Assembly (NCBI GenBank): GCA_002375495.1
Contig: DFLU01000005.1
Location: 103,503-167,502, forward strand
From: Flavobacteriaceae bacterium UBA3611
Lineage (GTDB): Bacteria; Bacteroidota; Bacteroidia; Flavobacteriales; Flavobacteriaceae
Direction: 5' to 3'
Length of the DNA: 64,000 nt
Part shown: positions 1,875 to 47,446 of the stretch, piece by piece
Layout: every line of letters starts with the position of its first letter
How positions within the stretch are numbered: position 1 is the first letter of the stretch
The notes under the pieces: model-generated
Told to the model about the DNA's origin: nothing
What the model saw: only the letters and a program-made list of their open reading frames with translations
Databases searched by the model: none
Translations under genes and position numbers: made by a program

Positions 1875-1900
1875 AAACTAAGTAAAGTTGAATACACAAG

Positions 1901-2577: not shown

Positions 2578-2628
2578 ATCTTGGTTAGTTTACAGACTTA
2601 AAGGTAGTTAAATCTAAGCACATGCCAC

Positions 2629-2644: not shown

Positions 2645-2681
2645 TTTCAACAAACAAATGCCTCATAGTTTGGTCACTCTA

Positions 2682-2933: not shown

Positions 2934-2980
2934 TTCACGGTTTATAGTTTAAAATTACGGGATGCTAATGGCAAAATCTA

Positions 2981-2996
2981 TACGGCAGTTGCCCTA
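2981..2996 (-). promoter_or_regulatory. Putative response-regulator box B
   Basis: TACGGCAGTTGCCCTA, 23 nt from minus-strand TAATTTTA (2950-2957); overlaps the kinase TAG stop. Confidence 0.65.
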
Positions 2997-30462: not shown

Positions 30463-31448
30463 GACAGCTCATTAACGGCATGTTTGCCATCAGCCCAGGC
30501 ATTTAAATTCTCAAGGGTAGCCGATGCAATATTATGCAATGCCTCACGCGTAGCAAAAGCTTGGTGGGGAGTCACTAATGTTTTGGGATGACAAAGAAGT
30601 TGGTGCAATTCCGTATCATTTGGAGCATTGTGTGATCTGTCATAAAAAAACACGCCATGTTCCCGTTCGTACACGTCTGTGGCATATCCTGAAACAAGGC
30701 CTTTGTTAAGGGCTTTTAAAATTTCAGTAGTATGTACAATACCTCCTCTTGCCACATTTACAATAATTGGTTTTTTTGAAAGTTTGGCTATATACGTTTT
30801 GTCAAAAAGATAATGAGTTAGTTGGTTTAGTGGAAGACTAATAAATATAATCTCCGCTTCGTTGGCGAGCGCATCTTTAGAAATATAGCTAACATCATAG
30901 TTGGTTATCAGCTCTTCGTTGCTACTGGTATCATTCGCCACGATGTTACATCCAAATCCGTGTAAGATTTTAACCAGCACACTTCCTATTCTACCAGTTC
31001 CCATTACGCCCACCGTTTTTCCGGTTAAATCGAATCCGATTAGATTATCTAAGAGGAAATTATCTTGAAGTGTCTGTTGCTGGGCGAGCGTTATTTTCCT
31101 GTTGAATGCCAAAAGTAATGCTATAGCATGCTCTGCAATGGCATTTGGAGAATAGCTGGGGGTGTTTGCCACCTTAAAACCGAGATGCCTGGCCGTTTTT
31201 AAATTTATGTTGTCGTGGCCTGCTGACCTCAGGGTAATATATCGCACCCCGAAATCCCTCAATTTAGTGAGTACTATGTCTGATGCGTCATCTGCCGAAA
31301 AAATAGAAATAGCATCGTAGTTTAATGCTTTCATTGCTGTTTCTGAAGTAAGCCGCTTTTCAGTATAGCTTATTTTGTGAATGGCGGCATTTGCTTTTTC
31401 AAGCAATGGTTTTTCAAAAGGTTTGGCACTATAAACGAGTACTTTCAT
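30459..31448 (-). CDS. ldhA: D-lactate dehydrogenase / D-2-hydroxyacid dehydrogenase
   Basis: LRSAGHDN, PSYSPNAIAEH, GTGRIG, VNVARG, DVYE and TPHQAF motifs. Confidence 0.8.
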   Translation of the reverse strand: MKVLVYSAKPFEKPLLEKANAAIHKISYTEKRLTSETAMKALNYDAISIFSADDASDIVLTKLRDFGVRYITLRSAGHDNINLKTARHLGFKVANTPSYSPNAIAEHAIALLLAFNRKITLAQQQTLQDNFLLDNLIGFDLTGKTVGVMGTGRIGSVLVKILHGFGCNIVANDTSSNEELITNYDVSYISKDALANEAEIIFISLPLNQLTHYLFDKTYIAKLSKKPIIVNVARGGIVHTTEILKALNKGLVSGYATDVYEREHGVFFYDRSHNAPNDTELHQLLCHPKTLVTPHQAFATREALHNIASATLENLNAWADGKHAVNELS

Positions 31449-31450
31449 GA

Positions 31451-32086
31451 TTAAAGTAGTAGTAGTTTGTTCTCTCGAAGCGAATTAAAAAGGATCTTTG
31501 TATAGGCATTTATGTTTCTGTTCACTTTGTCAGCATCTACCACTTCAATTTCACCGCGCCACAGCAATTCACGTTCTTTTCCTGGACAAATACAGTACAG
31601 TGAGGTTTCTGTGGTATAGACTTGGTATCGTTCTTTTTCCTGTTTCTGATATTCGTGTATATTGCCGTAGAAGTAATCCTCGTAGGTTGGATAATTTCTT
31701 GAAAAATTTCGATAGGCATCTACTACGGTCACTCTACTTTCAGAGCCCGTGACCTTTGTAAATAATATAGCATCAAAACCCGCATTTAGTAGTCGTTGCT
31801 CTATATTATCGAGTTGTGCGAGCGACTTTTTATTATCGGTAAACGAAGTTTCAAAGAAATCGATACTTTTTACAGCGATGACCCCTTGTTTATCTAGGTC
31901 TTCTGTCATCTTTTTTTCGTAGGTACGCCGCAATTCTGCATCTGCTGAAATACCAACCACCAACACTTTATTGGCCTCGAAGTTTACTGTATCGGGGTTT
32001 TTGTATTGCTGTACCAGCTTTGTTGAGCTGCAACCGCTTACCACCCAAAGGATAAGCACGATGCCGAGGTATATGAGTCTTTTCAT
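31451..32086 (-). CDS. Lipoprotein of unknown function
   Basis: Lipobox VSGC followed by SSTKLV. Confidence 0.75.
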   Translation of the reverse strand: MKRLIYLGIVLILWVVSGCSSTKLVQQYKNPDTVNFEANKVLVVGISADAELRRTYEKKMTEDLDKQGVIAVKSIDFFETSFTDNKKSLAQLDNIEQRLLNAGFDAILFTKVTGSESRVTVVDAYRNFSRNYPTYEDYFYGNIHEYQKQEKERYQVYTTETSLYCICPGKERELLWRGEIEVVDADKVNRNINAYTKILFNSLRENKLLLL

Positions 32087-32271
32087 GAAAATTGATTTTG
32101 TTAGATTAATTTAAAAGGTTTGTTTGCTTCTTGAACTTTATCAATTCATTAATAAAACCGTATTCGTATTTGATAAAAGTTAATTGTAGCATCCATTCTA
32201 GCATTAGGCAAATATTTTTTCTGGAGTACCTTATCGTACTATTCAGCAAGTGATGCTACATTCTCTAGGGC

Positions 32272-32709
32272 TTAATGAAGATTTTTCTGTTTGCTCTTCT
32301 TCATAATTTCTGCCAGCATCTTAAATATGGTCCGCTTGGTTTTTTTCACATCCGCATGCAAATCCATAGTACTAATCATCAACTCGTAATGGGTGTTTTT
32401 ATATTCTTTCACTTCGTTTGGAACATCAATATCATCTATCAACACTTGTAGATTGTTAGCATGCGCTTGCATTTCTTTTAATAAACGCTTAACCCTTTTG
32501 TCATATCCTCTTAACGCAATTGCTATTTGAGCAGCTTTCTCATGGGTTATATTATAAATTAGTTCTAGTGTGTCTTCAGCAACTAAGTCTCTTAAAAAAT
32601 GGAGTTCATCCTGCAAAAATTTTAATTCAGAAATACTCATCCCTATATCGTCGTGCAACCCACTAGGGTTTCTCCATTCAATGTACTTGTAATGTGTGCT
32701 TGTTTTCAT
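32272..32709 (-). CDS. Hypothetical helical protein
   Basis: 145-aa ORF with its own FNR-like box and -7-like element. Confidence 0.75.
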   Translation of the reverse strand: MKTSTHYKYIEWRNPSGLHDDIGMSISELKFLQDELHFLRDLVAEDTLELIYNITHEKAAQIAIALRGYDKRVKRLLKEMQAHANNLQVLIDDIDVPNEVKEYKNTHYELMISTMDLHADVKKTKRTIFKMLAEIMKKSKQKNLH

Positions 32710-32814: not shown

Positions 32815-32826
32815 TGATAATTATCA
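32815..32826 (-). promoter_or_regulatory. FNR-like box 2
   Basis: Perfect palindrome TGATAATTATCA, 23 nt from minus-strand TATTTTTA (32784-32791). Confidence 0.7.
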
Positions 32827-32899: not shown

Positions 32900-34270
32900 C
32901 TACACGAAAACAGTAACCACATCATTCAGCTTTGGTACCGTTACACGCCAAGAAAACGTAGCTTCCAGTTTTACGCTGAGTGCTTGTAATGAAGTAGGTT
33001 CACCATGAATTAGAAACGTATTTTCAGGTATATTTTTTATTTCACTCAACCAATGTAAGATCCCGTTCTGATCTGCATGGGCAGAGAGGCTTTCAATGTG
33101 TTCAACCGTAGCGTTCACTGGATAATACTTCCCGAAAAATTTCAGTTCATGTGCGCCTTCCAACAATTGTCGTCCCCTAGTGCCTTCCGCTTGATAACCC
33201 ACTAGTAGAATTGTAGTAGTTGGCACGTCGATGAGTTGTTGCATGTATGTTAGTACACGACCTCCTGTTACCATACCACTACCGGCGATTACAATTTTTG
33301 GTCTGGGGTCGTCAACTGTTTCCCATGTTTCTTTATACGATGAAACAATATGCATCCGTTTTTTCATAGCTTTAAATTCTGTGGGAGGGATTTTATGCCA
33401 TTGCGAAAACCGCTCAAAAACCCCCAGGACATTGCTACCCATAGGGCTATCTATAAATATTGGAATATTAGGGATACGCCGTTCATTATATAATTTCCAA
33501 AGAAGAAACATTAACGTTTGCAAACGTTCTACGGCAAAGGAAGGTATAATCAAAGTGCCGCGATTGTGAATTGTTTTGTTAATGAGTGCAATTAATTTTT
33601 CTGAAACACTCTCTTCTGGATGTAACTTTCCACCGTAGGTACTTTCCAAAAAAAGATAATCTGCCCATTGGGGCTTCTCTGGCGGGAACAATAACAGGTC
33701 ATTTTTCCTGCCTACATCTCCAGAAAATACAAACGTTTTACCAAAAAGCGCTAATTCGATAAAGGTAGCACCAATAATGTGACCGTTATATCGAAATCGA
33801 TATTTACAATTTTCCGAAAGCGAATGCCAGACATCTTTTTCTGCTGGCACCAACATCTTGATGGTGCGAGCGGCATCTTCAATCGTATAAAATGGCAAGG
33901 CTGGTTGGTGTTTAGAATACTTTTCTTTATTGGCACGTTCTGCATCTTCTTCATGTATTTTTGCGCTGTCCAACAATATAATTTTTGTGATTTCCAAGGT
34001 GGGTGAAGTTCCCATTATCTTACCCTGAAATCCCTGTTTCAGAAGCCTAGGTAGATAGCCTGTGTGATCTAAGTGACCATGGGTTAATAACACAGTGTCA
34101 ATGGCTGAAACCTCAAAAGATAGATCCTGCCAATTTTGCTCCCGCAATTCTTTTAGTCCCTGAAACATCCCACAATCTACAAGTATATTTTGTTCGGGTG
34201 TTTCTAATAAAAATTTAGATCCTGTGACGGTTCCCGAAGCTCCTAAAAAATGTATGTTAACAGTATTCAT
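32900..34270 (-). CDS. Metallo-beta-lactamase fold beta-CASP nuclease (YSH1/TTHA0252-like)
   Basis: Start MNTVNIHFLGA; THGHLDH, GHIIG, SGDVG, ESTYG and SAHAD motifs. Confidence 0.92.
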   Translation of the reverse strand: MNTVNIHFLGASGTVTGSKFLLETPEQNILVDCGMFQGLKELREQNWQDLSFEVSAIDTVLLTHGHLDHTGYLPRLLKQGFQGKIMGTSPTLEITKIILLDSAKIHEEDAERANKEKYSKHQPALPFYTIEDAARTIKMLVPAEKDVWHSLSENCKYRFRYNGHIIGATFIELALFGKTFVFSGDVGRKNDLLLFPPEKPQWADYLFLESTYGGKLHPEESVSEKLIALINKTIHNRGTLIIPSFAVERLQTLMFLLWKLYNERRIPNIPIFIDSPMGSNVLGVFERFSQWHKIPPTEFKAMKKRMHIVSSYKETWETVDDPRPKIVIAGSGMVTGGRVLTYMQQLIDVPTTTILLVGYQAEGTRGRQLLEGAHELKFFGKYYPVNATVEHIESLSAHADQNGILHWLSEIKNIPENTFLIHGEPTSLQALSVKLEATFSWRVTVPKLNDVVTVFV

Positions 34271-34271
34271 T

Positions 34272-35108
34272 TCAATTTGAGTTACATAGCATTGAGATTT
34301 CAGAAAGTATTTTTGCTTTGCGGGTTTCAGAAACACCCAAATGATCTAGGTAAAATACGTCGTTGGCCAATTGGCGGCACAGCACAATATCCCGACTTAG
34401 GAGAAATTGTTTTTCTCTATTAGTGAGCAAAGTTGAAACAGTTATTGGATAGAGCCCCAATCGGTCAATGCGATCCTTTAGCCCATTATCTTCAGGGTGG
34501 TCCCAACTAAGCAAATACAAACCTGCACATTTTCCGTAGGCAAGTGCATCTTTCGTAAACCGGGTGTTTGTGACCACCCAGCCTTCATTGGGGCAATTGG
34601 GTGTGTCTTTATATTGCGCAAGAATGTCTTGGTATCTAGAGTGAATGTACAAAGGCACTTTGACGTTACAGGTAGTTGATTTTTCACTATGAAATTTACA
34701 TTCGGCAACAATATGCTGCCCATTTTTAGATGCAATTACATCTACTTCATGCGACACACATTTGCCTTGCATTATTTTGCCCACCTCAACCTCATAACCA
34801 GCATATTTTAATACTGCGCCTATAAAATTTTCGAACGGAAACCCAGTGGGTCCCAACTCATAAATCGCCTTTTTGAGTTTGTATTTAGAAGCATAGATCG
34901 ACTTGCGCCTTTTCAACAGTGAGAACGCACGGTTGTAAATTTCTTTGGTAGAAATACCTTGGTACAATTCATCACGTACCACGTTGATGATATTGTCGAC
35001 AGTGAGTTCATCGGCCCCACTTCGATACAAGCTGGTCCTCAATTTGTCTATTGAAAAATCTACTTTTTCACCAGAAGACTTTATAACTTTAAAGGGTTCT
35101 TTTTTCAT
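34272..35108 (-). CDS. ATP-cone domain fused to Mrr-like PD-(D/E)xK nuclease domain
   Basis: N-terminal VIKSSGEKVDFSIDKL..SL ATP-cone pattern; then FE...EVDV...ECK nuclease motif. Confidence 0.8.
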   Translation of the reverse strand: MKKEPFKVIKSSGEKVDFSIDKLRTSLYRSGADELTVDNIINVVRDELYQGISTKEIYNRAFSLLKRRKSIYASKYKLKKAIYELGPTGFPFENFIGAVLKYAGYEVEVGKIMQGKCVSHEVDVIASKNGQHIVAECKFHSEKSTTCNVKVPLYIHSRYQDILAQYKDTPNCPNEGWVVTNTRFTKDALAYGKCAGLYLLSWDHPEDNGLKDRIDRLGLYPITVSTLLTNREKQFLLSRDIVLCRQLANDVFYLDHLGVSETRKAKILSEISMLCNSN

Positions 35109-35110
35109 AT

Positions 35111-35962
35111 TCAATTGCGGAAATCGTGCAAAGCTAATACGGGTACCTTTGCATTGAGACCCAAATCTTTTACCAAGGGTCTTGAGAAAATAGAACCAAA
35201 AAAGCTGTGTTTTTTATTAATAAAGGCAATCATTTCACTATTGCGGCTTTGCGCGAAGATGTTGAGCCCTGTTTGGACATCGGTATTTTCAAGTGTGTGG
35301 AAACTATATTTCAATCCTTCAAAACACGATTCGAGCAATGCTTTTTTCTCATTCTGTTCTTTTGAAAGTTCTTTTTCTTTTGAAATGTGCAAAATTCTAA
35401 TGGGCGCATTTGTAATGTTCGCAATTTCGTACAGATAGTTGAGCTCTCTTCGTTTATAATGCGTTTTGAAACTGGTGGGAAATACAATTTCGTTGGGTTT
35501 TTTAAAAGAGACATTTGCAGGAACCATAAATACAGGACAGTTGCGCACTTTTTCCATTATTTCGGCAGAACTCCTGCCAAAATTATAATTTTCATCATCT
35601 GTTTCTCCCCTAGAACCTATTGCTATTAGCTCGATATCGTATTTTTCAACCGTATTCTTAATTACTTCTACCAACGGACCAAATTCGCACATGAAATGAT
35701 ATGTATGGTTTGGATACTCATCTTCAAATTTCAGCTGTACCTTCAACCCCTCCATCTTTTTTTCAGAAGTATGCTTTAGTGATTGCAACACATCGCTTGA
35801 AGGTTCTGGAATCGATAAATTGTCTGTCGAGTAACCCAACGAAAAATACGTATTCAAAACATAGAATTCTACTTGTTGGTCTTTAAACAACTCAACTACA
35901 TACGCTATAGCATTTGTTGCATTTTTTGAAAAATCTGTCGGTACTAATATCCTTTTTTTCAT
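35111..35962 (-). CDS. Universal stress protein
   Basis: ILVPTDFS, IAIGSRG, CPVFMVP. Confidence 0.93.
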   Translation of the reverse strand: MKKRILVPTDFSKNATNAIAYVVELFKDQQVEFYVLNTYFSLGYSTDNLSIPEPSSDVLQSLKHTSEKKMEGLKVQLKFEDEYPNHTYHFMCEFGPLVEVIKNTVEKYDIELIAIGSRGETDDENYNFGRSSAEIMEKVRNCPVFMVPANVSFKKPNEIVFPTSFKTHYKRRELNYLYEIANITNAPIRILHISKEKELSKEQNEKKALLESCFEGLKYSFHTLENTDVQTGLNIFAQSRNSEMIAFINKKHSFFGSIFSRPLVKDLGLNAKVPVLALHDFRN

Positions 35963-36019
35963 CTTGATGAGCTTTATGGTTCTTCGTATAAAAATAAGCC
36001 CGAAACAGCCGTTTTACTA

Positions 36020-36031
36020 TGATATTTATCA
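36020..36031 (-). promoter_or_regulatory. FNR-like box 3
   Basis: TGATATTTATCA, 23 nt from minus-strand TATTTTTA (35989-35996); overlaps the upstream USP stop codon. Confidence 0.7.
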
Positions 36032-36877
36032 GTCTTGGGCAGGTACTATCAAAAATGGAATAAGCGAGAATTTTGCAATGTCTTTTACCGTAGCCTCCCT
36101 AAATAACCGCACAAAAACATTGTGCTTGTAATAGATCATTGCCAACAGATCTATATTTTCTTTTTGTATGTATGATGTAATTGCATTGTATGTGTCTGAA
36201 GTGCCCGGCAACCAATTGTTTTCTGGGTTCGTTTCTTCTAAGATTTCATGAAGTTGATGTGCGTTGGCACGTTGCTCGTCTGACTTTTTTTCCTTTTTTT
36301 GAACGTACACCACCTTCACGGTCGCATTTGTTTTTCCTACTAGTTCTAACAAGGGTTCAAGTTCAACTTTTGAGTATGGTCTCTTAAATCCTGTGGCAAA
36401 GGCAATTTTCTCTACCGATTTGAATTCGAAACCCTGGGGAATGATCAATAAGGATGCTTTCTTTATTTTGCGTATCATCGCAAGGGTATTGCTTCCAACT
36501 AAAATATCTGCAGCTCCGGTACTGCCTTTGTTACCCATAACGACAAGATCTGCCTGTTCTTTAACTATTAATTTATTTATTGCTCTTGCTAACGTGAGCG
36601 AGGTAGCTATAGTTTTATAGCTGTGATTGGCATTTGGAACGTCCTTCGCAATGGCATGTTTTACTTCATCACATTGTTCTTCGTAAGTCGAATAGAATTC
36701 TGCAACAACAGCTTCGGTTTTTGCAATATCTACCCGGCTGGTCATATGGCTTACTTGGTTTTCAAAAGAGTGCACAATAATAAATGTACATTCTGTTTCA
36801 GCATACAACTGTGCTGCATATTGTAATGCGGCGTATGCATTCGCTGAAAAATCTGTGGGAACAAGAATTGTTTTCAT
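36029..36877 (-). CDS. Universal stress protein
   Basis: ILVPTDFS, DLVVMGNKGSTG, GSNT. Confidence 0.93.
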   Translation of the reverse strand: MKTILVPTDFSANAYAALQYAAQLYAETECTFIIVHSFENQVSHMTSRVDIAKTEAVVAEFYSTYEEQCDEVKHAIAKDVPNANHSYKTIATSLTLARAINKLIVKEQADLVVMGNKGSTGAADILVGSNTLAMIRKIKKASLLIIPQGFEFKSVEKIAFATGFKRPYSKVELEPLLELVGKTNATVKVVYVQKKEKKSDEQRANAHQLHEILEETNPENNWLPGTSDTYNAITSYIQKENIDLLAMIYYKHNVFVRLFREATVKDIAKFSLIPFLIVPAQD

Positions 36878-36889
36878 AAAGGGAATGTT

Positions 36890-37738
36890 TTATTGTCTCT
36901 CTACGGAAGGGATCACCAAAAACGGGACATTGGTATGATACACCACCTGATTTATGACGGGTTTAAATAATAAGTTTTCTAAAAAATTGTGCTTGTTATG
37001 GATCATCACAATCAAATTGATTTTCGACTTCATTTGAAACTGTTCCACAGCACCCAATACGTCGGTTCCTTCTGCCTCATGAAAAAGGTGTGCATTACGG
37101 ATAAAATAGTTGTCCAAAAACGTTTTAGCTTCCTGTTGTTTTTCGGTTAATGCAGTACCGTAATACACATTCAACATATTTAATTCAGATACGTGCTGTT
37201 CGCACAGTTCCCGGAGCATTGGTAGATACTTATTGTCTTTGTCGAAGTTATAATCTGTAGGAAATAGAATTTCCTTCGGCTCTTCAAAACTGAAATTTTC
37301 AGGAACTGCCAATACGGGAACCTTTATTTTTTTAATGGCATACATGGTGTGTGTTCCCAAAAATATTTCTTTAGCTCCAGTAGCACCTTGCGTACCCATA
37401 ATTACAAGATCTATTCCTTTTTCTTCTATTATTAGTTCCATTTCTGAAATAAGCATATTAAAGCTTGTAGCATATTTCAAACTATGTTTGGGGTTTTTAA
37501 AACTTGCCTCGAGCTTTTCTTTAAGGGCATCCATCTTTTTATCTGCATTTTCTTTGGCTGCTTCTTGCAGTGTTATGGCAGAATAACTGTCCATCATACT
37601 TCCTGCGCTTATCATAGCTGGGGTATAGGTGTGCAACAAATAGAATGTGCATGTTTCCTGTTTATACAATTGAAGCGCATACGCTATGGCATTATAAGCG
37701 TTTTCTGAAAAATCTGTGGGCAACAATATTCGTTTCAT
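36890..37738 (-). CDS. Universal stress protein
   Basis: ILLPTDFS, DLVIMGTQGATG, VPVLAVP. Confidence 0.93.
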   Translation of the reverse strand: MKRILLPTDFSENAYNAIAYALQLYKQETCTFYLLHTYTPAMISAGSMMDSYSAITLQEAAKENADKKMDALKEKLEASFKNPKHSLKYATSFNMLISEMELIIEEKGIDLVIMGTQGATGAKEIFLGTHTMYAIKKIKVPVLAVPENFSFEEPKEILFPTDYNFDKDNKYLPMLRELCEQHVSELNMLNVYYGTALTEKQQEAKTFLDNYFIRNAHLFHEAEGTDVLGAVEQFQMKSKINLIVMIHNKHNFLENLLFKPVINQVVYHTNVPFLVIPSVERQ

Positions 37739-37766
37739 AGTATTCTTAATTTAAGTGAAGTTATTG

Positions 37767-38612
37767 TTATCTCGGTAGGTTTTGAAGGACCAAAAAGGGG
37801 ATTTCTATTTCTAAACCTATTTTTTCGATGGCAGAGCGATACAGCAGGTTTTCTAAATAAGAATGTCTGTGGTTTACCATCACAAGCATATCTATAACAC
37901 TGTCTTTCAAAGTTTTGTTTACTGCTGCGGTAATGTCTTTTCCAGGTGTTTTTATGTAAGAAATTTTCACGTCTTCAAAGCAGCACCCGGCAAGTGCTTT
38001 GTTATCTTGCTGTCTATGTGAAAGTTGCTCAGCTTCGGAAATATGCAGAAAATGAACTCTGGTAACAAATCGTTTCGCGATGGTATTTATAAGTTTTAGT
38101 TCCCTGCGATTAAATGGGAGCATATAATTGGTGGGGAATAGAATATTTTCTGGAGGATACCCGTGAAACCCAACGGGAACCGCTAGCACCGGACAACTAA
38201 CATATTTAATTACTTGAAGTGTCTGGCTACCAAAAGTAATATCGTCTTTATTCGTTTTTCCTTTGGTGCCCATTACAATAATATCTGCATTGCTTGTATT
38301 GGCCAGATCATTTACCTCATCTACCAGACTACCAAATTTGGCCACATATTCATAGGTGTGTTTTGGGTTGGGCGATAGCTCCAACATTTGGGCGATAACT
38401 TTTTGTAATGCCCTTTCTATTGCCGCTTCACTTTTTTGCTTGTATTCTTCAAAGAATTCACGGTCCATTTCCATGGTGTTTTCATATACATCATCGGCAA
38501 AAGCATTCATAATGACAAACCTGCTTTTTTCATATTTGAAGAGTTCTACCGCATAGCGAATAGCATTATCTGCAGTTTCAGAAAAATCGGTAGGAATGAT
38601 GACGGTTCTCAT
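37767..38612 (-). CDS. Universal stress protein
   Basis: VIIPTDFS, DIIVMGTKG, GSQT, CPVLAVP. Confidence 0.93.
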   Translation of the reverse strand: MRTVIIPTDFSETADNAIRYAVELFKYEKSRFVIMNAFADDVYENTMEMDREFFEEYKQKSEAAIERALQKVIAQMLELSPNPKHTYEYVAKFGSLVDEVNDLANTSNADIIVMGTKGKTNKDDITFGSQTLQVIKYVSCPVLAVPVGFHGYPPENILFPTNYMLPFNRRELKLINTIAKRFVTRVHFLHISEAEQLSHRQQDNKALAGCCFEDVKISYIKTPGKDITAAVNKTLKDSVIDMLVMVNHRHSYLENLLYRSAIEKIGLEIEIPFLVLQNLPR

Positions 38613-38668
38613 AGTAGCTGTTTTAGGTTTCCTATCCCAAAGCTACAGTGCGAAACATTCTTATAAAA

Positions 38669-38680
38669 TGATATTTATCA
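38669..38680 (-). promoter_or_regulatory. FNR-like box 4
   Basis: TGATATTTATCA, 23 nt from a perfect -7 element TAGCTTTG (38638-38645, minus strand). Confidence 0.75.
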
Positions 38681-38723
38681 GCCTAATAATAGATTGTACA
38701 TCTATTTGGCAGATAGAAGAAAA

Positions 38724-39560
38724 TTATTCGTGTAGCACCAAGAAAGGGATTCGGGTGTGGTAGCTAATTTTCTGGACCCGGGGTTTAAATAAAATTCGCT
38801 GGAAGAGATTGAGACTTTTCGCGATCATCACCACCATGTCTATTTTAAAAGAGCTGACAAACGACTGCAGCGCGTCTTCCAGATTAGGGTCTTCTACTAC
38901 GTGAAAGCTATGGGGTACCTCGGCCAAAGAATCATTTAGATAAATCCTGTTGGTATTTTGAAAAGCGTTTAAAGGTTGTTCATTTTGGGCTACCCTCAGA
39001 ACTTTGACCATCGATTGATGGATTTTTGCCATACCCTGCAACAGTTGCAGGACCTTGTTGGTATAAGGAATGTTGAAATCTGTAGGAAATCCGATATTTA
39101 CGGGCGGTTTAAAAGTAGCTTCTTCTGGGATGACCAAGATGGCACATTTAACTTTTGTAATAACAGCCCCCGTGCTGCTACCTACGGTTATTTCTTTTAT
39201 GCCTGAAGCACCTTTTGTGCCCATTGCTATTAGATCGATATTATTCGTTTTTACATAGCTCCGTATACTCTCAATAAAACGCCCTTTTACTACAGTTGCG
39301 ATGATGGCATGGTTGTTAATGCGGTTTTTAGCATTTACCCTAGCTACTAGCGAATCCATATTGTCCTGCAGTTCACTTTCAATTTCGCCCAATGCAAGGA
39401 AGCCTGCTGTGTGTAAATTTTCATCTCTAGGGAGAGTGTAAGCAGTATCGACGTGCAAGAAATGAAATGTGACACGTTCCTCACGAAAGAACTCAAAAGC
39501 ATATTGGATAGCGTTCCAAGCATTAAGAGAAAAATCTGTAGGAATTAATATATGCCGCAT
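38724..39560 (-). CDS. Universal stress protein
   Basis: ILIPTDFS, DLIAMGTKGASG, GSST, CAILVIP. Confidence 0.93.
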   Translation of the reverse strand: MRHILIPTDFSLNAWNAIQYAFEFFREERVTFHFLHVDTAYTLPRDENLHTAGFLALGEIESELQDNMDSLVARVNAKNRINNHAIIATVVKGRFIESIRSYVKTNNIDLIAMGTKGASGIKEITVGSSTGAVITKVKCAILVIPEEATFKPPVNIGFPTDFNIPYTNKVLQLLQGMAKIHQSMVKVLRVAQNEQPLNAFQNTNRIYLNDSLAEVPHSFHVVEDPNLEDALQSFVSSFKIDMVVMIAKSLNLFQRILFKPRVQKISYHTRIPFLVLHE

Positions 39561-39608
39561 TACTTTTGATTATCGTACAAAAGTATTAGGGTGCTAAGCA
39601 GTAAAGAA

Positions 39609-39620
39609 TGACAATTATCA
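39609..39620 (-). promoter_or_regulatory. FNR-like box 5
   Basis: TGACAATTATCA, 23 nt from a perfect -7 element TACTTTTG (39578-39585, minus strand). Confidence 0.75.
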
Positions 39621-39634
39621 GTTACTCAAAATTA

Positions 39635-40681
39635 TTACTCCATCATCTCAAGGGCCTTCAGATCACGAATGGTAATATTTCTACCCTCGATTTCTATAAG
39701 ATTCTTCTTTTTGAATTCAGACAAGGTACGTATCAAACTTTCTGTGGCGATTCCGGCCACGCTAGCCAAGTCTGCACGTGAAATCTTGATGGCTTCGTCA
39801 GGTTTCTTGTTGAGAATCTTTGAAAACTGTAAAATAGTCTGGGCCGTTTTTTTACGTACTGAGCTGTATGCCATTTGTAGCAGTTGTTCTTTTATTTCTG
39901 AAACGGTATCACTCAACACATTCACAAGTGCCAAGGATACTTTTTGATTTTTGCCAAGAATATCTTTTAATGAACTTTTAGAGATGCCAGCCAATTCTGA
40001 TTCTTCAACAGCAGTAGCTGTTTCCTCATAGGGTACATTATCTTCAAAAGAAGTAAATCCCACAAATTCATCTTCCTTATAAAGTGCCGTGATGAGTTCT
40101 TTACCACTTTCATCCAATTTATGACTTTTTACGACTCCTTTTAATATAAGGAAAATAGTATTGGAGCGACTCCGCTCTTCGTAAATAACCTCCCCTTTTT
40201 TGTAGGTGCTAATTACACCATTATCGTCAAAAAAATTTTTTAGTTCGTTTAAGTCCCGAAGATCATCTTCCTTTTCTGTGAAAGTTGGCGCTATGGCTTT
40301 CGCTAAAATTTCAGCTTTTGCCAATCTACTTTCAATGGCGCTTATTAATTCATCCTCTTCAAAAGGCTTGGTAAGGTAATCGTCTGCCCCGAGGTCCATC
40401 CCTTTTCGTATTTCTTTGTGCTCTGTTTTGGCAGATAAGAATATAAAGGGAATGTGTGCCGTTTTTTCATCTAAAGATAAGGCTTCCAGTACTCCATAAC
40501 CATCTACTTCGGGCATCATTATATCGCAAACAATGAGGTTTGGCAGGTATTCCTTAGCCATATCGATACCAATCTTACCGTTAGGAGCCGTAAAAACATG
40601 GTAATTGGCAAGTTCTAACAGTTCTGCAGTGTTTTCTCGAAGGGCAGTATCGTCTTCTATTAAAAGTATGTTTTTCATCAT
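39635..40681 (-). CDS. Response regulator: REC domain fused to CRP/FNR-family cNMP-binding-like and HTH domains
   Basis: IEDD, D53 in VCDIMMP, GADDYLTKP; CRP-like beta-roll (YKKGEVIY...ILKGVV); HTH ISRADLASVAGIATESLIRTLSEF. Confidence 0.93.
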   Translation of the reverse strand: MMKNILLIEDDTALRENTAELLELANYHVFTAPNGKIGIDMAKEYLPNLIVCDIMMPEVDGYGVLEALSLDEKTAHIPFIFLSAKTEHKEIRKGMDLGADDYLTKPFEEDELISAIESRLAKAEILAKAIAPTFTEKEDDLRDLNELKNFFDDNGVISTYKKGEVIYEERSRSNTIFLILKGVVKSHKLDESGKELITALYKEDEFVGFTSFEDNVPYEETATAVEESELAGISKSSLKDILGKNQKVSLALVNVLSDTVSEIKEQLLQMAYSSVRKKTAQTILQFSKILNKKPDEAIKISRADLASVAGIATESLIRTLSEFKKKNLIEIEGRNITIRDLKALEMME

Positions 40682-42198
40682 TGGTCTTTATCAGTGATTG
40701 GAATGGTTACCACAAAAGTGGAGCCCTTATTTTCAATACTTGTAAATGTAATGCTGCCTCCCAAGTTTTCCAAATGCGTCTTTACAATATTGAGCCCAAT
40801 ACCGGTTCCTTGGTTCAGCAAAGCATTTTCGGCTCTAAAGTATCGGTTAAAAATGTGCTTTTGTTCTTCTTTTGGAATTCCAATCCCTTCATCTGAAATG
40901 GAAATCTTAAGGCTATCTTCGTTCTGTTCAATAATTATATTTACGGTGGTATTTTCTGAAGAATACTTAACCGCATTGTTAATCAAATTGGTTAAAACGA
41001 GTGCCAAGATTTTTTCATCAAAGTGTACCACAATAGTATCTATGCCTTCGGGATAGGCAATCGTTTGTCCTTCCTTCAACATCATATTGGCATCATAAAT
41101 AACTTCGTTCACCACTTTACTCAACGGAAAACTCGCAAAATTGTAGTTTACACTTCCACTTTCAAGCCGTTCTATGGATAAAAAATCATTGATGATATTA
41201 TTGAGGTATTTTACCTTACTGGTTATAGTGTTAAGGTGTTTCTCCCGTTTTTCCTGTTGGTCTTCTTTTGTATATTTTCCGGCCAACGTGGCAGAAGTTA
41301 AAATACCGCTCAATGGCGTTTTAAATTCATGAGAAACCAATGACAAAAATTTTGTTTTCAGTTCGCCCAATTCTTTTTCTTTTTTGAGGGCATCTTGCAA
41401 CTGTCGGGTACGAATGGCAACTTCCTTTTCCAATTTATTCGTGTACTCAACTCGTTCGGTAATGTCTAAAATTATGGCTACCAGAGTATCTTTATTCTCT
41501 TTCACCGTTTTCTGCAAATGAACTTCAACAGGATATGTACTTGCGTCTTTACGTTGATGCGTGGTATAGAATATTAGCTTTTCTTTTTCACCAATTAATA
41601 AAGGTGTGATTTCATTCCGAAAAGCAGCTTCGTCAAAATCGGGTTTAATATCTACTGGGGTCATACTTCTCAATTCGTCCAGTGTATATCCTATGTTTTG
41701 TTGTGCCCCCTTATTCACATCCATGAATTTTAATGTGGCTGCATCAAATATGAAAATTTCGTTGAGTGATTCGTTAAAAATCTCAGCCCAGTGCTTCAAT
41801 TCCTGTTCAGCTTTTTTTCTAACGGTAATGTCAATTACCAAAGCCATTACATACTCTTGGTCATAGATGGAAAAGGGGTTCAATCCGGCCTCGACTGGGA
41901 AATGTGATCCATCTTTTCGGCGTCCGTATAAATTGCGACCATGCCCCATAGAACGCTTCTCGCTCTTATCCATAAATTCATCTACATGCGAATGGTGGCT
42001 ATGATGGTATTTTTTGGGGATCAAAATATCGAGGTGCTGCCCTAGCAATTCGTCCTCGGCATATCCAAAAACTTCGTTTGCCGCCGAGTTGGTCGCCACA
42101 ATGTGTTGCTCTTTGTTTACGATAACGATTCCCTCAGAAACGGCTTCTGATAAAATCTTAAAAACATTGCTCCCCTTTTTAAATACTTCCATAGGCAT
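40678..42198 (-). CDS. Double-PAS cytoplasmic sensor histidine kinase, FixL-like
   Basis: PAS-A LIPKKYHHSH...GRRKDGSHFPVE, PAS-B, H-box SHEFKTPL, NLINNAVKYS, DEGIGIP, GTGIGL; no TM segment. Start may be 42192. Confidence 0.92.
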   Translation of the reverse strand: MPMEVFKKGSNVFKILSEAVSEGIVIVNKEQHIVATNSAANEVFGYAEDELLGQHLDILIPKKYHHSHHSHVDEFMDKSEKRSMGHGRNLYGRRKDGSHFPVEAGLNPFSIYDQEYVMALVIDITVRKKAEQELKHWAEIFNESLNEIFIFDAATLKFMDVNKGAQQNIGYTLDELRSMTPVDIKPDFDEAAFRNEITPLLIGEKEKLIFYTTHQRKDASTYPVEVHLQKTVKENKDTLVAIILDITERVEYTNKLEKEVAIRTRQLQDALKKEKELGELKTKFLSLVSHEFKTPLSGILTSATLAGKYTKEDQQEKREKHLNTITSKVKYLNNIINDFLSIERLESGSVNYNFASFPLSKVVNEVIYDANMMLKEGQTIAYPEGIDTIVVHFDEKILALVLTNLINNAVKYSSENTTVNIIIEQNEDSLKISISDEGIGIPKEEQKHIFNRYFRAENALLNQGTGIGLNIVKTHLENLGGSITFTSIENKGSTFVVTIPITDKDQ

Positions 42199-42219
42199 AA
42201 AGGTACATAAATATTGAAC

Positions 42220-42231
42220 TGATAAATGTCA
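42220..42231 (+). promoter_or_regulatory. FNR-like box 6
   Basis: TGATAAATGTCA, 23 nt before TATTTTTA (42255-42262); also directly upstream of the divergent kinase gene. Confidence 0.7.
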
Positions 42232-42282
42232 TAGCACAGCTCAATTCGCCTTATTATTTTTACACTATTAAAAGATTAAAAG

Positions 42283-42690
42283 ATGGAAAAAATTAGTGCT
42301 ACCGAATTAGTATTCTATCAAAAATTAGGAGAACTTTTTTACGCCATTGCTGCCTCAGACAAGGTAGTGCGCGAAGCCGAGTATAAAACCCTCACACAAA
42401 TCGTAGAAGAAAGGTGGAAGCAAATAGACGACTACGAAGACCAATTTGGCAGTGATGCCGCGTACCAAATTTCAATCGTTTTTGAATGGTTTGATTATGA
42501 GCAAATGGATGCAGACGATTGTTTTACAAGCTTTTCCGATTATTACATGGAACATAAAAGTTTGTTTAGCGAACTACGCAAAAATCTTATACTGAACACG
42601 GCGCACAGTATTGCAGAAGCGTTTGCAGGCACCAATAAAAGTGAGTTAATCATGATCGCTAAACTTGAATTACTTTTTAACAAACACTAA
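42283..42690 (+). CDS. Hypothetical protein, TerB-like fold possible
   Basis: LFYAIAASDKVVREAE and IAEAFAGTNKSEL resemble TerB helices. Confidence 0.6.
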   Translation: MEKISATELVFYQKLGELFYAIAASDKVVREAEYKTLTQIVEERWKQIDDYEDQFGSDAAYQISIVFEWFDYEQMDADDCFTSFSDYYMEHKSLFSELRKNLILNTAHSIAEAFAGTNKSELIMIAKLELLFNKH

Positions 42691-42701
42691 ACCCCTTTTT
42701 T

Positions 42702-43601
42702 ATGAAATACTTAGTGCTATCACTATCGCTGCTATTGTTTTTATCTTGTAAAAACGATACATCGCGGCCCACAGACACCCCAAATACCGAGGTGAATACT
42801 TCAATAGAAAGTGATGATACTTTTGAGCAAGTACTTCCGTTCGATTCTATCTACACCAACAATGATACGGAATTGAAAAAAACCAAATCGGTAGTCATAA
42901 AAAGACAAAATTTAATCGACAAAGAAGACGACAAAAAAGAATTAGAGGAATTGGTCATTCAAAAAACCTTTAAAAAAGATGAAGATTTATACCTAATAGA
43001 CTTTACCTATCCGTACCTGAATGAAGAGTTAAAAGCTTCGTACCACAACTTTAATGAATATCTGGAAGAAACATATATGGATATTGCTGGGGTGGAAGCT
43101 AGTATTTTAGAAGACAAAGAATTGATATGTGACACCTTACGCATCAACCGATTTAAGGAAAAACGCTTTGTAGATTATAAAATCTACAACTTAAACGCGT
43201 CCCTTATAAGTGTGCTTTTCTACAAGGAAAACTATTATTCTGGCACTTTGCACCCTTCATACACCTTCGATTGTTTAAACTTCGATTTGGAACGCTCGGT
43301 ATTTATGGATTATGAAGATTTTTTTAATGAAGGGACCGAAGAGGAAATGACACAAATTTTAAACGAAGTACTTCGAGAAAAAATAAATAGTGGTGACATC
43401 TATTTTGATTGTTGGGAAATTACCTTCGATGATTTTTTTGAGTACAAAGACAATTTCGTAGTAGACGATGCTAAGGTAGAATACTACTTTGACGACTGCG
43501 TTATCTGCCCGTCTTACACAGGCACATTCTCTGTAGAGATTCCGCTAGAGCGATTATTGCCTGTACTTAGAAAATATAAATTTAACCCCTTTATGATGTA
43601 A
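42702..43601 (+). CDS. Lipoprotein with DUF4163/DUF3298 (RsiV/PdaC-like) domains
   Basis: Lipobox FLSC; ISVLF..YYSGTLHP...NFDL..FF..NF.V..YF pattern. Confidence 0.7.
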   Translation: MKYLVLSLSLLLFLSCKNDTSRPTDTPNTEVNTSIESDDTFEQVLPFDSIYTNNDTELKKTKSVVIKRQNLIDKEDDKKELEELVIQKTFKKDEDLYLIDFTYPYLNEELKASYHNFNEYLEETYMDIAGVEASILEDKELICDTLRINRFKEKRFVDYKIYNLNASLISVLFYKENYYSGTLHPSYTFDCLNFDLERSVFMDYEDFFNEGTEEEMTQILNEVLREKINSGDIYFDCWEITFDDFFEYKDNFVVDDAKVEYYFDDCVICPSYTGTFSVEIPLERLLPVLRKYKFNPFMM

Positions 43602-43602
43602 T

Positions 43603-44247
43603 ATGAGATTCTACGCAATTTTGTATGTAGTGGCCTATCTATTATTTGTAGGTACACTTTTCATATTGCCACTATTCTCTTTTGAAGGTGCTTCGATTCT
43701 AGAAACTACAATCGGAGCACTGGGAGCGCAGAAAGTACCTGGAAATTGGTTCGCAAACGCAACGGTCATCTTATTGAGTTTTGCAGTGGTACCGCTCGCC
43801 ACAAAACAGTTAGGGAGTTATTGGAAACAGCTCGCAGTGCTCTATACCTTTTGTATCGTCTTTTTCTTTACGGGAATGTACCAATTGGCGGGTCTAGATG
43901 CACAGCAATATATTTTTAATTATACCAATGACGCGCTGCATTCCTTATTTTCAGTTATTACTGGGTTTGCTTTTTGTCTTTTTTGCGTTTTCTTTATCGT
44001 TATTTTAAAAGAAAAAGCACATAGATGGCAAACAGTTATAGTTTTCTCATTGGCATTGATACTACCGTTGCTTATGTGGTACTTTCCGGCATATAAAGGC
44101 ATTTTACAACGTGTTCTTTTTCTGGTAACTTTTGGTTGGTTATTTTATGCATTAACTTCATACCCGTTGAAGAGAAGCAACAGTAAAGCTTCACAAATTA
44201 GACGTTATAACGAGCTGAAAAAACACATTCAAAAAGATGAAAAGTAA
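43603..44247 (+). CDS. Membrane protein (DUF998-like)
   Basis: Multi-TM; TIGALGA, LHSLFS and GILQR motifs. Confidence 0.7.
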
Positions 44248-46234: not shown

Positions 46235-47068
46235 CTACACCTTAAAGGTCATTATGGGTAAATCACTATGATTCACGATAGCTTCGCCAATATTTTCAGA
46301 AAAGAAATGAGCCAACCCCCTTCTTCCGTGGGTAGGTATTACCACCATATCTGCATCAACTTCATCACTAAAGCTATAGATACCATGTTCTAATCTATAG
46401 TCACAGTAATATGCGGTATTATCATACACATCTGTATTTTCTACACCGCTGTGTAACATAAACTTAAAGGCCCGTTCTTGCATTTCTTGATTGCTCAAGA
46501 ATTTCTCTGGGGTATTGATAAAAACCACTTGAAACTCGGCACCAATTGATTCGAAGAATTCCCAAGCTTTTTTGAATGCCCCTGCAAAATCTATATTGAA
46601 ATCGCAAGCAAACACCACCTTGTCCATTTTAAAATCTTTGTTACGGTTTTTTACCACCAAAACAGGAATTTCTGAAGTGCGCACCACCTTTTCTGTATTA
46701 GATCCTACAAAAACTTCTTTTAAGCCACTGGCACCGTGTGATCCCATCACGATTAGATCTGCTTTAAAATCGTTGGCAACCGTATTTATTTCGTGAAACT
46801 CCTTATAATTTTGTACTGTAGTTTCAACAGTGATGCCTTTTAAATAATCTTTGTCCAGGAAATCGCTAAAACGCTTTTCAGCTAGTTTCATATAGTAGAT
46901 AGCTTCCAACATTTCTCTAGACTCATCTTTAGTGAGAATTGCTTCCGAGAGCCCCATCATGTGCAAAACAACCAGTGAAGCATTGTTTTTTTTGGCTAAT
47001 GTAGCAGCCACTTCAAGGGCGTATTCTGAGTGATCAGAAAAATCTATAGGTATCAGTATTTTTTTCAT
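46235..47068 (-). CDS. Universal stress protein
   Basis: ILIPIDFS, DLIVMGSHGASG, GSNTEKVVR, PTHGRRG. Confidence 0.95.
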   Translation of the reverse strand: MKKILIPIDFSDHSEYALEVAATLAKKNNASLVVLHMMGLSEAILTKDESREMLEAIYYMKLAEKRFSDFLDKDYLKGITVETTVQNYKEFHEINTVANDFKADLIVMGSHGASGLKEVFVGSNTEKVVRTSEIPVLVVKNRNKDFKMDKVVFACDFNIDFAGAFKKAWEFFESIGAEFQVVFINTPEKFLSNQEMQERAFKFMLHSGVENTDVYDNTAYYCDYRLEHGIYSFSDEVDADMVVIPTHGRRGLAHFFSENIGEAIVNHSDLPIMTFKV

Positions 47069-47380
47069 CTAAGAGGATATGTTTTGGTTCGTAAATTTTG
47101 CTTTTCGCTTTTTTAATTGCTTTTCGAGGTCTGAAATGGTTTCTTTTACAGCCATCTCATAATTTTTTTCGTTGGAAGCTGCAAAAATTTTAGGTCCCGG
47201 TAAGCTCAGTTCCATTTCGCAGATTTGTCCTTTTTCGGTAGGATCATTCTCTTGTTTAAAGAAAACATCGGCTCTAATTACCCATTCATATTTTTTTGCG
47301 AGTCGTTGTAACTTCTTAGAAGTATAATCAACCATGCTTTCGCTGGTTTTCATTTTTACAAATTGAATATCTATAGTCAT
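47069..47380 (-). CDS. hpf: Ribosome hibernation factor (short HPF/RaiA)
   Basis: Start MTIDIQF (alternative 47395); YTSKKLQRL, ICEMELSLPG..IFA, AVKETISDLEKQLKKRK S30AE pattern. Confidence 0.85.
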   Translation of the reverse strand: MTIDIQFVKMKTSESMVDYTSKKLQRLAKKYEWVIRADVFFKQENDPTEKGQICEMELSLPGPKIFAASNEKNYEMAVKETISDLEKQLKKRKAKFTNQNISS

Positions 47381-47434
47381 AGCGTTTCGTTTCATTGTTT
47401 CTTCAAAAATAAAAAGCAACCCTACTTTAAACTA

Positions 47435-47446
47435 TGATAAATATCA
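47435..47446 (-). promoter_or_regulatory. FNR-like box 7
   Basis: TGATAAATATCA, 23 nt from a perfect -7 element TATTTTTG (47404-47411, minus strand). Confidence 0.75.

Follow-up and report, generated by a model that had tools for sequence, protein, structure and literature searches.

The kinase and the response regulator encoded by two overlapping genes of this marine flavobacterium probably form a dedicated two-component low-O2 switch, which would turn on stress and dormancy genes in its own neighbourhood. We found no experimental work in the literature on any member of the family, and the pair is not described in the Galperin census, the CRP/FNR meta-regulon paper, the F. columnare genome paper or the RgzAB preprint. 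The window referred to below is the whole 64-kb stretch of DNA that was analysed, and the coordinates of its relevant features are collected in Table 1.

The gene pair and its conserved neighbourhood

The preliminary description had reported that the kinase and regulator genes overlap by ATGA, and this is the case on the minus strand, where the junction reads CCAATGATGAAA and the TGA of the kinase overlaps the ATG of the regulator. Since the orthologues start with MEVFKK (kinase) and MKNILL (regulator), the true start of the kinase is probably Met3 and that of the regulator perhaps Met2. With these starts, the residues numbered here as His68 and D53 would therefore become His66 and D52, and the overlap would become TGATG.

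The order kinase, regulator and one to eight tandem Usp genes is kept in about 75 of 80 Flavobacteriaceae loci from many genera, and the pair itself is conserved in the genomes of at least 564 species. In 75 of 76 loci, the ATG of the first Usp gene is preceded by a TGAY-N4-RTCA box at -60 to -68, and a box lies upstream of the kinase in 74 of 80. Two distant relatives extend this picture: the locus L081 encodes a one-PAS kinase with a His at P+7, followed by the regulator and then by a Usp gene, and at the locus L083 a very FixL-like kinase (ILMPSPDREQHDRYL...IIGKGRE) and its regulator are divergent from ccoNO-Q-P-G with a box between them, this being the one distant relative in which a cbb3 oxidase operon adjoins the pair. 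An oxygen switch would be consistent with the synteny, with the conservation of the box and with the cbb3 operon beside the pair of this relative. Metatranscriptome contigs were found for Usp1, Usp2 and the divergent operon, which indicates that these genes are transcribed; kinase or regulator RNA was not seen in the contigs of one metatranscriptome, a weak negative.

Table 1. Coordinates in the window of the genes, domains, residues and promoter elements of the kinase/regulator locus (residue numbers as called)
Feature	Position	Strand	Remarks
Sensor histidine kinase gene	40678..42198	-	506 aa as called; probable true start Met3, 42192
Response regulator gene, REC::cNMP-like::HTH_Crp	39635..40681	-	348 aa
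Kinase stop/regulator start overlap	40678..40681	-	ATGA (in ATGATG); second ATG possibly the start
Four tandem double-domain Usp genes	36029..39560	-	directly downstream of regulator; conserved first target
PAS-A, FixL/DosP-type haem-PAS	41815..42147	-	residues 18-128; sequence and model matches
Codon of His68	41995..41997	-	predicted proximal haem ligand; invariant in 33 orthologues
Codon of Arg88	41935..41937	-	position of distal O2-contacting Arg of FixL/DosP; present in 22/33 orthologues
PAS-B	41449..41781	-	no cofactor signature; sole, weak PDB relative 3bwl
HisKA dimerisation/phospho-acceptor domain	41155..41358	-	H-box SHEFKTP; His290 at 41329-41331
HATPase_c catalytic domain	40693..41019	-	N, G1 and G2 boxes intact
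Receiver domain, OmpR/PhoB-like lineage	40331..40669	-	D10, D11, D53 (codon 40523-40525), S83, K105
cNMP-binding-like beta-roll	39950..40207	-	CRP E72, R82, S83 not kept; no Fe-S cysteines
Crp/FNR-type HTH	39647..39799	-	recognition helix ATESLIR (312-318); E314, R318
Box 6, TGATAAATGTCA	42220..42231	.	common to both divergent promoters
-7-like element TATTTTTA	42255..42262	+	23 nt from box 6; serves divergent 135-aa gene
-7-like element TACCTTTA	42198..42205	-	kinase promoter; 14 nt from box 6; 5 nt before Met3
Box 5, TGATAATTGTCA on minus strand	39609..39620	.	14 nt past regulator stop

PAS-A and its candidate haem pocket

The kinase is a soluble PAS-PAS-HisKA-HATPase protein without a transmembrane segment and without Cys. 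When PAS-A was compared with solved structures, the 13 best distinct PDB sequences were all haem-PAS domains (FixL, DosP and EcDOS, 3e-18 to 2e-11), with E-values of 3e-18 for RmFixL, 4e-16 for DosP and 3e-13 for BjFixL, and LOV, the next class, first appeared at 5e-5. His68 had been placed by the preliminary description at the P+7 position of the FixL haem ligand; it is indeed located seven residues past Pro61 and aligns without gap on the proximal haem His of RmFixL (1d06), which we take to be the residue named His194 (ILMPEPYRHE(H)DGY in RmFixL versus ILIPKKYHHS(H)HSH in the kinase, ligand position in brackets). The alignment with RmFixL is gap-free from the F-helix to the G-strand, both proteins having IL-P--Y-H-H...M...EKR--G--R---G-RKDGS-FP in common. 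The model of PAS-A (pLDDT 80) gave RmFixL, BjFixL and EcDOS/DosP among its best Foldseek matches, and His68, Pro61, Arg82 and Met84 are invariant among 33 orthologues of 47-81% identity. By its sequence PAS-A is a FixL/DosP-type haem-PAS domain, which would be expected to bind haem.

The same description had set His68 within a His-rich patch (PKKYHHSHHSH, residues 61-71). The patch is present, with five His in seven residues (65, 66, 68, 69 and 71), and it could be imagined that it binds a metal ion, or that PAS-A carries a flavin or no cofactor at all, the kinase then reporting metal or energy status; the low confidence of the full-length AlphaFold model at residues 67-71 and 78-86 would be compatible with such a PAS-A lacking haem. 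We consider this very unlikely. The patch is otherwise unconserved, its sole invariant His being His68 (at 65, 66, 69 and 71 the orthologues also have Arg, Gln, Asn, Asp, Leu or Tyr), and for this reason it was rejected as a metal site. Moreover, the sequence matches to haem-PAS domains surpass those to LOV and other PAS classes by 8-13 orders of magnitude, a LOV domain is impossible because the kinase has no Cys, and poor model confidence in the F-helix and the FG loop is expected of an apo haem pocket. The full-length kinase model (pLDDT 72, pTM 0.35) is too weak for inter-domain inference.

In haem-PAS domains, the distal Arg of the G strand that touches bound O2 (R220 of BjFixL, R97 of EcDOS) confers O2 selectivity, and Arg88 of the kinase occupies this position. 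As 11 of the 33 orthologues have Leu, Gln, Lys, Ser or Gly in its place, O2 discrimination may differ among them, or the signal may be a different one (NO, CO, redox state). Among the other pocket positions, Arg206 of BjFixL, a propionate contact, corresponds to Glu74 in the kinase, and His86, the counterpart of the distal Met95 in EcDOS, was rejected as the distal ligand of the family, this position varying between His, Asn, Arg, Lys, Ile, Met, Leu and Ser. The same architecture, haem included, could accordingly serve a signal other than O2, namely NO, CO or the haem redox state, with the regulon then answering nitrosative or redox stress. All three gases are ligands of haem-PAS domains, and the missing Arg in a third of the orthologues, the variable position 86 and the presence of thioredoxin, OsmC and pyridoxamine-oxidase-fold proteins in the regulon would agree with such a signal. 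We nevertheless regard it as unlikely, since Arg88 is kept in this genome and in most orthologues, the Usp arrays, the hibernation factor, the lactate-dehydrogenase-like enzyme and the cbb3 oxidase of the relative are classic low-O2 targets, and no NO reductase or flavohaemoglobin was found behind a box in the window.

The regulator, its boxes and the kinase promoter

As the preliminary description had proposed, the partner of the kinase fuses a receiver carrying D53 to a CRP/FNR body: Response_reg (residues 5-117, E=4.5e-27 with Pfam), cNMP_binding (159-244, 61 bits) and HTH_Crp_2 (295-345, 50 bits) were all detected, the last two over their cut-offs, and the acidic pair, the phospho-Asp and the conserved Ser and Lys of the receiver are all present. 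The receiver is nearest to RpaA, PleD, CtrA and PhoP, and the body to FNR (1.6e-15), then to CRP and then to FixK2 (1e-9), with DNR and NtcA also matching. The E..R (ESLIR) announced in the recognition helix was recovered, ETISR of FNR being aligned on ESLIR with Ser212 of FNR corresponding to an Ile. The N-terminal [4Fe-4S] Cys cluster was sought in the regulator and none was found, its only Cys being C52 inside the receiver, which bears out the earlier statement that the FNR Fe-S cysteines are missing.

The cAMP contacts of CRP, Glu72, Arg82 and Ser83, align to a gap, Tyr218 and Glu219 in the regulator (the CRP sequence used being supported by a BLAST E-value of 7e-18), and cAMP binding was rejected on this ground. 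The cNMP-like pocket, GFTSF...PY[QE]E[ST]ATA, is nearly invariant among orthologues of 72-89% identity and could bind a second ligand or be a docking face for the receiver. In many Crp/FNR members this pocket accommodates ligands other than cNMP, and the complete beta-roll and the conserved pocket motif would suit a two-input regulator, i.e. an AND gate in which phosphorylation of the receiver is combined with a small molecule bound to the beta-roll, in the manner of NtcA, CooA or DNR. Such a gate appears quite unlikely: beyond the missing cAMP contacts, the conservation may equally mean a dimer interface, a docking site for the receiver or an RNA polymerase contact (the FNR region aligned at the pocket is presumably AR3, which makes this contact), and the conserved neighbourhood holds no ligand-making enzyme.

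Concerning the DNA sites, TGATAAWTGTCA with at most one mismatch is matched 10 times in the window versus 1.2 expected, and the composite of a box, 23 nt and a Bacteroidota -7 element is found at nine promoters of the window, all with exactly 23 nt, versus 0.06 expected by chance. Over 80 loci, the commonest spacing between box and -7 element is 23 nt (174 cases). We also tried the canonical FNR/FixK box TTGAT-N4-ATCAA as the motif and found it not to be enriched (8 versus 5.75 expected), the actual motif being without the outer T/A. Box 5 is followed by 23 nt, TACTTTTG (39578-39585) and 17 nt before the first Usp gene. Box 6 had been described as sitting just upstream of the kinase and correctly spaced for the divergent operon, and both points hold: 27 nt separate it from the probable start of the kinase and 23 nt from TATTTTTA, the ATG of the divergent 135-aa gene being located 20 nt past this element (42283).

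The pair appears to be the obvious master of the TGAY-N4-RTCA promoters, whose boxes the regulator would bind. Flavobacteria usually encode several Crp/FNR proteins, and a further paralogue encoded beyond the 64-kb window could be the one that binds the boxes, the target of the pair then being unrelated. This is highly improbable, as the frequencies given above place a box beside the pair across genera on both the kinase and the regulator sides, a box also accompanies the pair in a 34%-identical relative, and the window, which holds all the box promoters, encodes no further Crp-like protein.

With the regulator as the binder, box 6 would have a second role. As TACCTTTA lies so close to Met3, the kinase mRNA is probably leaderless, and the distance of 14 nt between box 6 and this -7 element puts the box over the -33 region of the kinase promoter. 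The negative autoregulation at box 6 suggested earlier therefore fits the geometry and is plausible; the same spacing, which is not 23 nt, led us to reject box 6 as a class-II site activating the kinase in this genome. Between genera, the spacing of the kinase-side box to the -7 element is 10-14, 19-20 or 24-25 nt, the last being an activating spacing, and the sign of autoregulation would thus depend on the lineage.

Relation to known systems and proposed mechanism

In rhizobia, the signal passes from FixL to FixJ and then to FixK. This system, also present in Caulobacter, resembles the pair in its haem-PAS sensor, whose proximal His position and FG-loop signature recur in PAS-A, in its two-component phosphotransfer (predicted for the pair), in its FNR/FixK-type effector acting on a palindrome with a TGA-N6-TCA core at a class-II-like distance, and in its low-O2 targets, with cbb3 oxidase beside the pair of a relative. 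It differs in that three proteins are involved instead of two, the receiver of the pair being fused directly to the FNR-type body, in that the partner of the kinase is no FixJ (NarL/LuxR-type), and in that the box of the pair lacks the outer T/A and is associated with the Bacteroidota -33/-7 promoter of the host. The kinase core is nearest to WalK, VicK and HK853 (1e-30 to 1e-27), the core of BjFixL reaching no better than E=2e-6, and the FixL equivalog model NF041777 gave 104.8 bits with the whole kinase for a cut-off of 850, its best stretch being PAS-A only. Orthology to FixL/FixJ was rejected on the strength of this score, of the WalK/HK853-like core and of the OmpR/PhoB-like receiver. The preliminary description had seen in the pair a FixLJ-K system collapsed to two proteins, which stands as a functional analogy but not as descent: because only PAS-A is of the FixL lineage, the pair is, as judged from sequence, a convergence by domain shuffling.

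FNR (E. coli/Aliivibrio fischeri, PDB 5cvr) is the best structural relative of the 210 C-terminal residues of the regulator (the E-value given above for the body). Both share the beta-roll, the dimer helix, the HTH and the E..R, and FNR is an O2-responsive activator acting from about -41.5. Unlike FNR with its N-terminal Cys cluster, the regulator has its sole Cys in the receiver, and O2 sensing in the pair would be performed by a separate haem kinase and relayed by phosphorylation. DosS/DosT-DosR (DevSR) of Mycobacterium tuberculosis is likewise a haem-based kinase system of an aerobe (the haem of our kinase being predicted), with a dormancy-type regulon, rich in Usp and including a ribosome-hibernation-type factor, clustered round the regulator genes. 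In contrast to the pair, its haem is held in a GAF and not a PAS domain and DosR is of the NarL/LuxR type; a domain search found neither a GAF domain nor a GerE/LuxR HTH in the pair. Sequence relation to this system is limited to the generic kinase and receiver domains, and the likeness lies in the regulon content. E. coli DosP (EcDOS), the second-best relative of PAS-A, has the same His and Arg positions but a c-di-GMP phosphodiesterase output, and its distal Met95 corresponds to the non-conserved His86 of the kinase.

We propose the following mechanism, for which we infer O2 as the signal, the phosphotransfer, the DNA binding and the sign of regulation, and whose presumed polarity is deduced solely from FixL and from the kinds of gene in the regulon. 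The soluble kinase would hold a b-type haem in PAS-A through His68; it would be inhibited when O2 is bound and, by analogy with FixL, the deoxy haem would lead to autophosphorylation on His290. The phosphoryl group would then pass from His290 to Asp53 of the translationally coupled regulator, and the phosphorylated OmpR-like receiver would drive or re-orient the dimerisation of the attached FNR-type body, standing in for the Fe-S dimerisation switch of FNR or for the separate FixJ-to-FixK step, so that one phosphotransfer step would do the work of both FixJ and FixK. Through its E314/R318 recognition helix, the dimer would occupy TGAY-N4-RTCA boxes and activate transcription where the box is exactly 23 nt upstream of a Bacteroidota -7 element (box centre at about -41, class-II-like). 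In the window, the targets would comprise at least nine promoters, serving seven Usp genes, the ribosome hibernation factor, the D-2-hydroxyacid dehydrogenase operon, the divergent 135-aa/DUF3298/DUF998/thioredoxin operon, an Mla-type transporter and TauE, among other genes. At the probably leaderless promoter of the pair, where 14 nt separate the box from the -7 element, the phosphorylated regulator would be more likely to lower the synthesis of kinase and regulator than to raise it.

A wider reading, which we advance tentatively and hold at somewhat less than an even chance, is that Bacteroidota possess an O2 system unlike that of any studied phylum, in which a FixL-type haem kinase acts on a receiver-FNR hybrid, phosphorylation replaces the Fe-S dimerisation switch, and the hybrid directly activates Usp arrays and a hibernation factor as a dormancy regulon similar to that of DosR, as well as cbb3 oxidase in relatives, with feedback on the leaderless promoter of the pair through a second conserved geometry one helical turn closer (11-14 versus 23 nt to the -7 element).

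Aerobic marine Flavobacteriaceae are major degraders of algal polysaccharides on oxygen-poor particles and apparently lack the studied systems FNR, ArcAB and FixLJ. Owing to its wide conservation and to a cis-element that can be read from the sequence, the pair offers them a candidate master switch with a ready-made regulon that is directly testable. A receiver-gated Crp/FNR protein would be a new mode of control for this large family of transcription factors, and the pair would be a clean case of convergent assembly, in which the FixL-to-FixK logic is built from unrelated parts.

Gene pair and predicted haem sensor

As the preliminary description had stated, the kinase and regulator ORFs overlap, the minus strand reading CCAATGATGAAA at the junction. 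Four tandem Usp genes, each double-domain, lie downstream of the regulator on the same strand. The kinase has neither a hydrophobic segment (Kyte-Doolittle maximum 1.42) nor any cysteine. With one genome scanned per species, relatives of the kinase turned up in at least 564 species, and our locus comparisons were performed on the best 80 loci, which include Patiriisocius, Rasiella, Aquimarina, Dokdonia, Lacinutrix, Maribacter, Arenibacter, Winogradskyella, Flagellimonas and others. In about 75 of the 80, the regulator gene is immediately downstream of the kinase and has one to eight Usp genes after it; we regard the two proteins as almost certainly a cognate pair. Since the orthologues begin with MEVFKK (kinase) and MK(N/T)ILL (regulator), the true starts are probably Met3 (42192) and possibly Met2, respectively; residues are nevertheless numbered from the called starts, as in the preliminary description.

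Features of the kinase-regulator region and of three box-preceded gene groups
Feature	Position	Strand	Content
Kinase ORF	40678-42198	minus	506 aa; two PAS, HisKA and HATPase_c (Pfam)
Regulator ORF	39635-40681	minus	348 aa; Response_reg, cNMP_binding and HTH_Crp_2 (Pfam)
135-aa gene	42283-42690	plus	unannotated; divergent from kinase
Box 6	42220-42231		TGAY-N4-RTCA copy between kinase and 135-aa gene
Kinase start with its -7-like element	42190-42205	minus	element TACCTTTA
Ribosomal_S30AE hibernation factor	47069-47419	minus	box 47435-47446, 23-nt promoter
Usp gene paired with hibernation factor	46235-47068	minus	
Dehydrogenase gene run	30459-32709	minus	145-aa ORF, 211-aa ORF, D-2-hydroxyacid dehydrogenase; three same-strand genes behind box 32815-32826
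Usp/nuclease unit	32900-35962	minus	Usp gene, ATP-cone::Mrr-like nuclease, beta-CASP metallo-beta-lactamase nuclease in one unit; box 36020-36031

In a sequence search against all PDB sequences, the best 13 distinct matches of PAS-A, the first PAS domain of the kinase, were all haem-PAS domains: RmFixL (3e-18), four DosP entries (about 1e-16 to 1e-15), BjFixL (3e-13 to 2e-12) and EcDOS (2e-12 to 2e-11). LOV domains, the first class without haem, came only at 5e-5. The AlphaFold model (pLDDT 80) gave top Foldseek matches to RmFixL, BjFixL and EcDOS/DosP but also to LOV domains, this fold search discriminating less well for PAS-A than the sequence search. The gapless alignment with RmFixL places His68 on the proximal ligand (ILMPEPYRHEH*DGY in RmFixL, ILIPKKYHHSH*HSH in PAS-A), in agreement with the P+7 position proposed earlier, and both domains share the FG-loop to G-strand signature EKRxxGxxRxxxGxRKDGSxFP. 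His68, Pro61, Arg82 and Met84 do not vary in a set of 33 orthologues drawn from many genera, with identities of 47-81%. In the His-rich patch noted in the preliminary description, the remaining histidines are variable. Arg88, which we take to be the equivalent of the Arg that contacts O2 in FixL and DosP, is present in only 22 of the 33, and Glu74 occupies the position of BjFixL Arg206. PAS-A is quite likely to bind haem, with O2 somewhat favored as the signal sensed. No cofactor signature was found in PAS-B.

Some longer orthologues (624-629 aa; P0079 of Gillisia lutea and P0107 of a Maribacter MAG) have an additional domain inserted between PAS-A and PAS-B. It is a genuine LOV domain, matching short LOV proteins at E=5.6e-38 and possessing the cysteine of NCRFLQ, so that these kinases would join the predicted haem input with blue light. 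In the 623-aa Polaribacter orthologues P0055 and P0056, the PAS-B module is duplicated and the motif HWANIFNESLNEIYI occurs twice.

Regulator, box and candidate regulon

The proposed fusion of a receiver to a CRP/FNR body is borne out by the Pfam domains, by the receiver residues D10, D11, D53, S83 and K105, and by the C-terminal 210 residues, which match FNR best (5cvr, 1.6e-15), then CRP, FixK2 (1e-9), DNR and NtcA. FNR ETISR aligns with ESLIR, so that the E..R noted before is retained, and the Fe-S cysteine cluster is indeed absent, C52 being the sole cysteine. The cAMP contacts of CRP, E72, R82 and S83, are lacking in the alignment with CRP (match E=7e-18). In CRP/FNR proteins, the recognition-helix Glu and Arg read the TGA of each half-site; the TGA-to-TCA gap of the window box is 6 bp, as in CRP and FNR sites, and by analogy we infer that the same residues would read it here. 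The 64-kb window encodes no further Crp-like protein, and the boxes are very probably bound by this regulator.

The motif TGATAAWTGTCA with at most one mismatch gave 10 matches in the window against 1.2 expected, all within 29.5-52.5 kb, and TGAY-N4-RTCA followed after 22-24 nt by TAnnTTT(G/A/T) gave 9 against 0.06. In all nine composite promoters the spacing is exactly 23 nt, with a start codon 8-79 nt downstream. Three belong to the Usp array; the others precede (i) the hibernation factor and its Usp gene, (ii) the divergent 135-aa/DUF3298/DUF998/thioredoxin operon, (iii) the 145-aa gene heading the same-strand run to the D-2-hydroxyacid dehydrogenase, (iv) an MlaE/ABC/MlaD transporter, (v) TauE and (vi) a 169-aa protein. 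This spacing puts the box center near -41, the class-II position, replacing the -33 element, and these promoters are likely activated. Box-preceded hibernation factor and Usp genes parallel the mycobacterial DosR regulon, and the dehydrogenase may serve, under this same control, to regenerate NAD in fermentation.

When all 80 loci are pooled, the distances between box and -7 element cluster sharply at 23 nt (174 cases), with a second peak at 11-12 nt (27 cases). In 75 of 76 loci a box is found at -60 to -68 relative to the first Usp ATG, and 74 of 80 have one no more than 200 nt upstream of the kinase. The 135-aa protein, without a Pfam match even at E≤1, is a conserved first member of the candidate regulon; its gene is always preceded by the box (about -57 to -64) and is kinase-divergent in most of the 80 loci.

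In a single marine metatranscriptome (run X1), contigs map to Usp1, Usp2 and the divergent operon but none to kinase or regulator, which shows target-gene transcription only. Within 35900-43700, contigs end or begin a few bases from start codons, at 39560 (Usp1) and 42285 (135-aa gene), which is compatible with very short leaders, although such contigs tell neither strand nor true transcript ends.

Box 6 and possible autoregulation

Box 6 stands 23 nt from TATTTTTA, itself 20 nt from the ATG of the 135-aa gene; this confirms the spacing claimed earlier and argues for a regular activating-type site for the divergent operon. On the kinase side, when the intergenic regions are aligned on the box, TAnnTTTG is conserved 4-6 nt before the kinase ATG, suggesting a probably leaderless mRNA, which would explain Met3 as start. 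The called Met1 (42198) overlaps the kinase's -7-like element, and orthologues start at the Met3 equivalent, an arrangement shared across genera. The kinase-side -7 element lies 10-12 nt from the box in most genera and 14 nt in the window, a proximity that accounts for the second spacing peak; the box would then cover the -33 region, a predicted repressing or neutral position. Eight loci have 24-25 nt, an activating geometry, and Aquimarina has 19-20 nt with a long leader. The negative autoregulation suggested earlier is thus a fair but tentative reading for this genome and, with the spacing differing among genera, not a family-wide rule.

Lineage and distribution

The FixL equivalog model scored 105 bits on the kinase, against a cut-off of 850, and matched PAS-A only. 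The transmitter core has its nearest relatives among WalK/VicK/HK853-type kinases (1e-30 to 1e-27) and matches the BjFixL core, found in YF1, at only 2e-6; the receiver is nearest to RpaA, PleD, CtrA, PhoP and PhoB. The sensor module alone is thus of FixL lineage, the whole having been assembled by domain shuffling. The preliminary observations are thus confirmed, whereas their interpretation as FixLJ-K in two proteins is only partly supported: the pair is a functional analogue of FixLJ-FixK, as of DosST-DosR, but a member of neither.

The regulator family comprises 1,524 clusters (50% identity) at E≤1e-30, the best 150 nearly all full length. A 38%-identical regulator lies between a one-PAS kinase, with P+7 His and RxMG kept, and a Usp gene. 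Another (34%), on a distant relative's contig (L083), follows a kinase with the PAS ILMPSPDREQHDRYL...IIGKGRE, and this pair diverges from ccoNO-ccoQ-ccoP-ccoG, a TGATTCTCATCA box lying in between. This second case ties the family to cbb3 oxidase, the classical FixK/FNR target. In L083, fused ccoNO, a small ORF, ccoP and a FixG-like gene occupy 198-3746, and the box lies at 3834-3845 in the shared intergenic region.

The databases already hold this domain architecture under generic names, and our full-text literature search found no published study of this pair or of any receiver-Crp regulator. As far as that search reached, the pair is unstudied; it is widespread, and is probably a two-component switch that senses low oxygen through haem and has an unusual FNR-type output.
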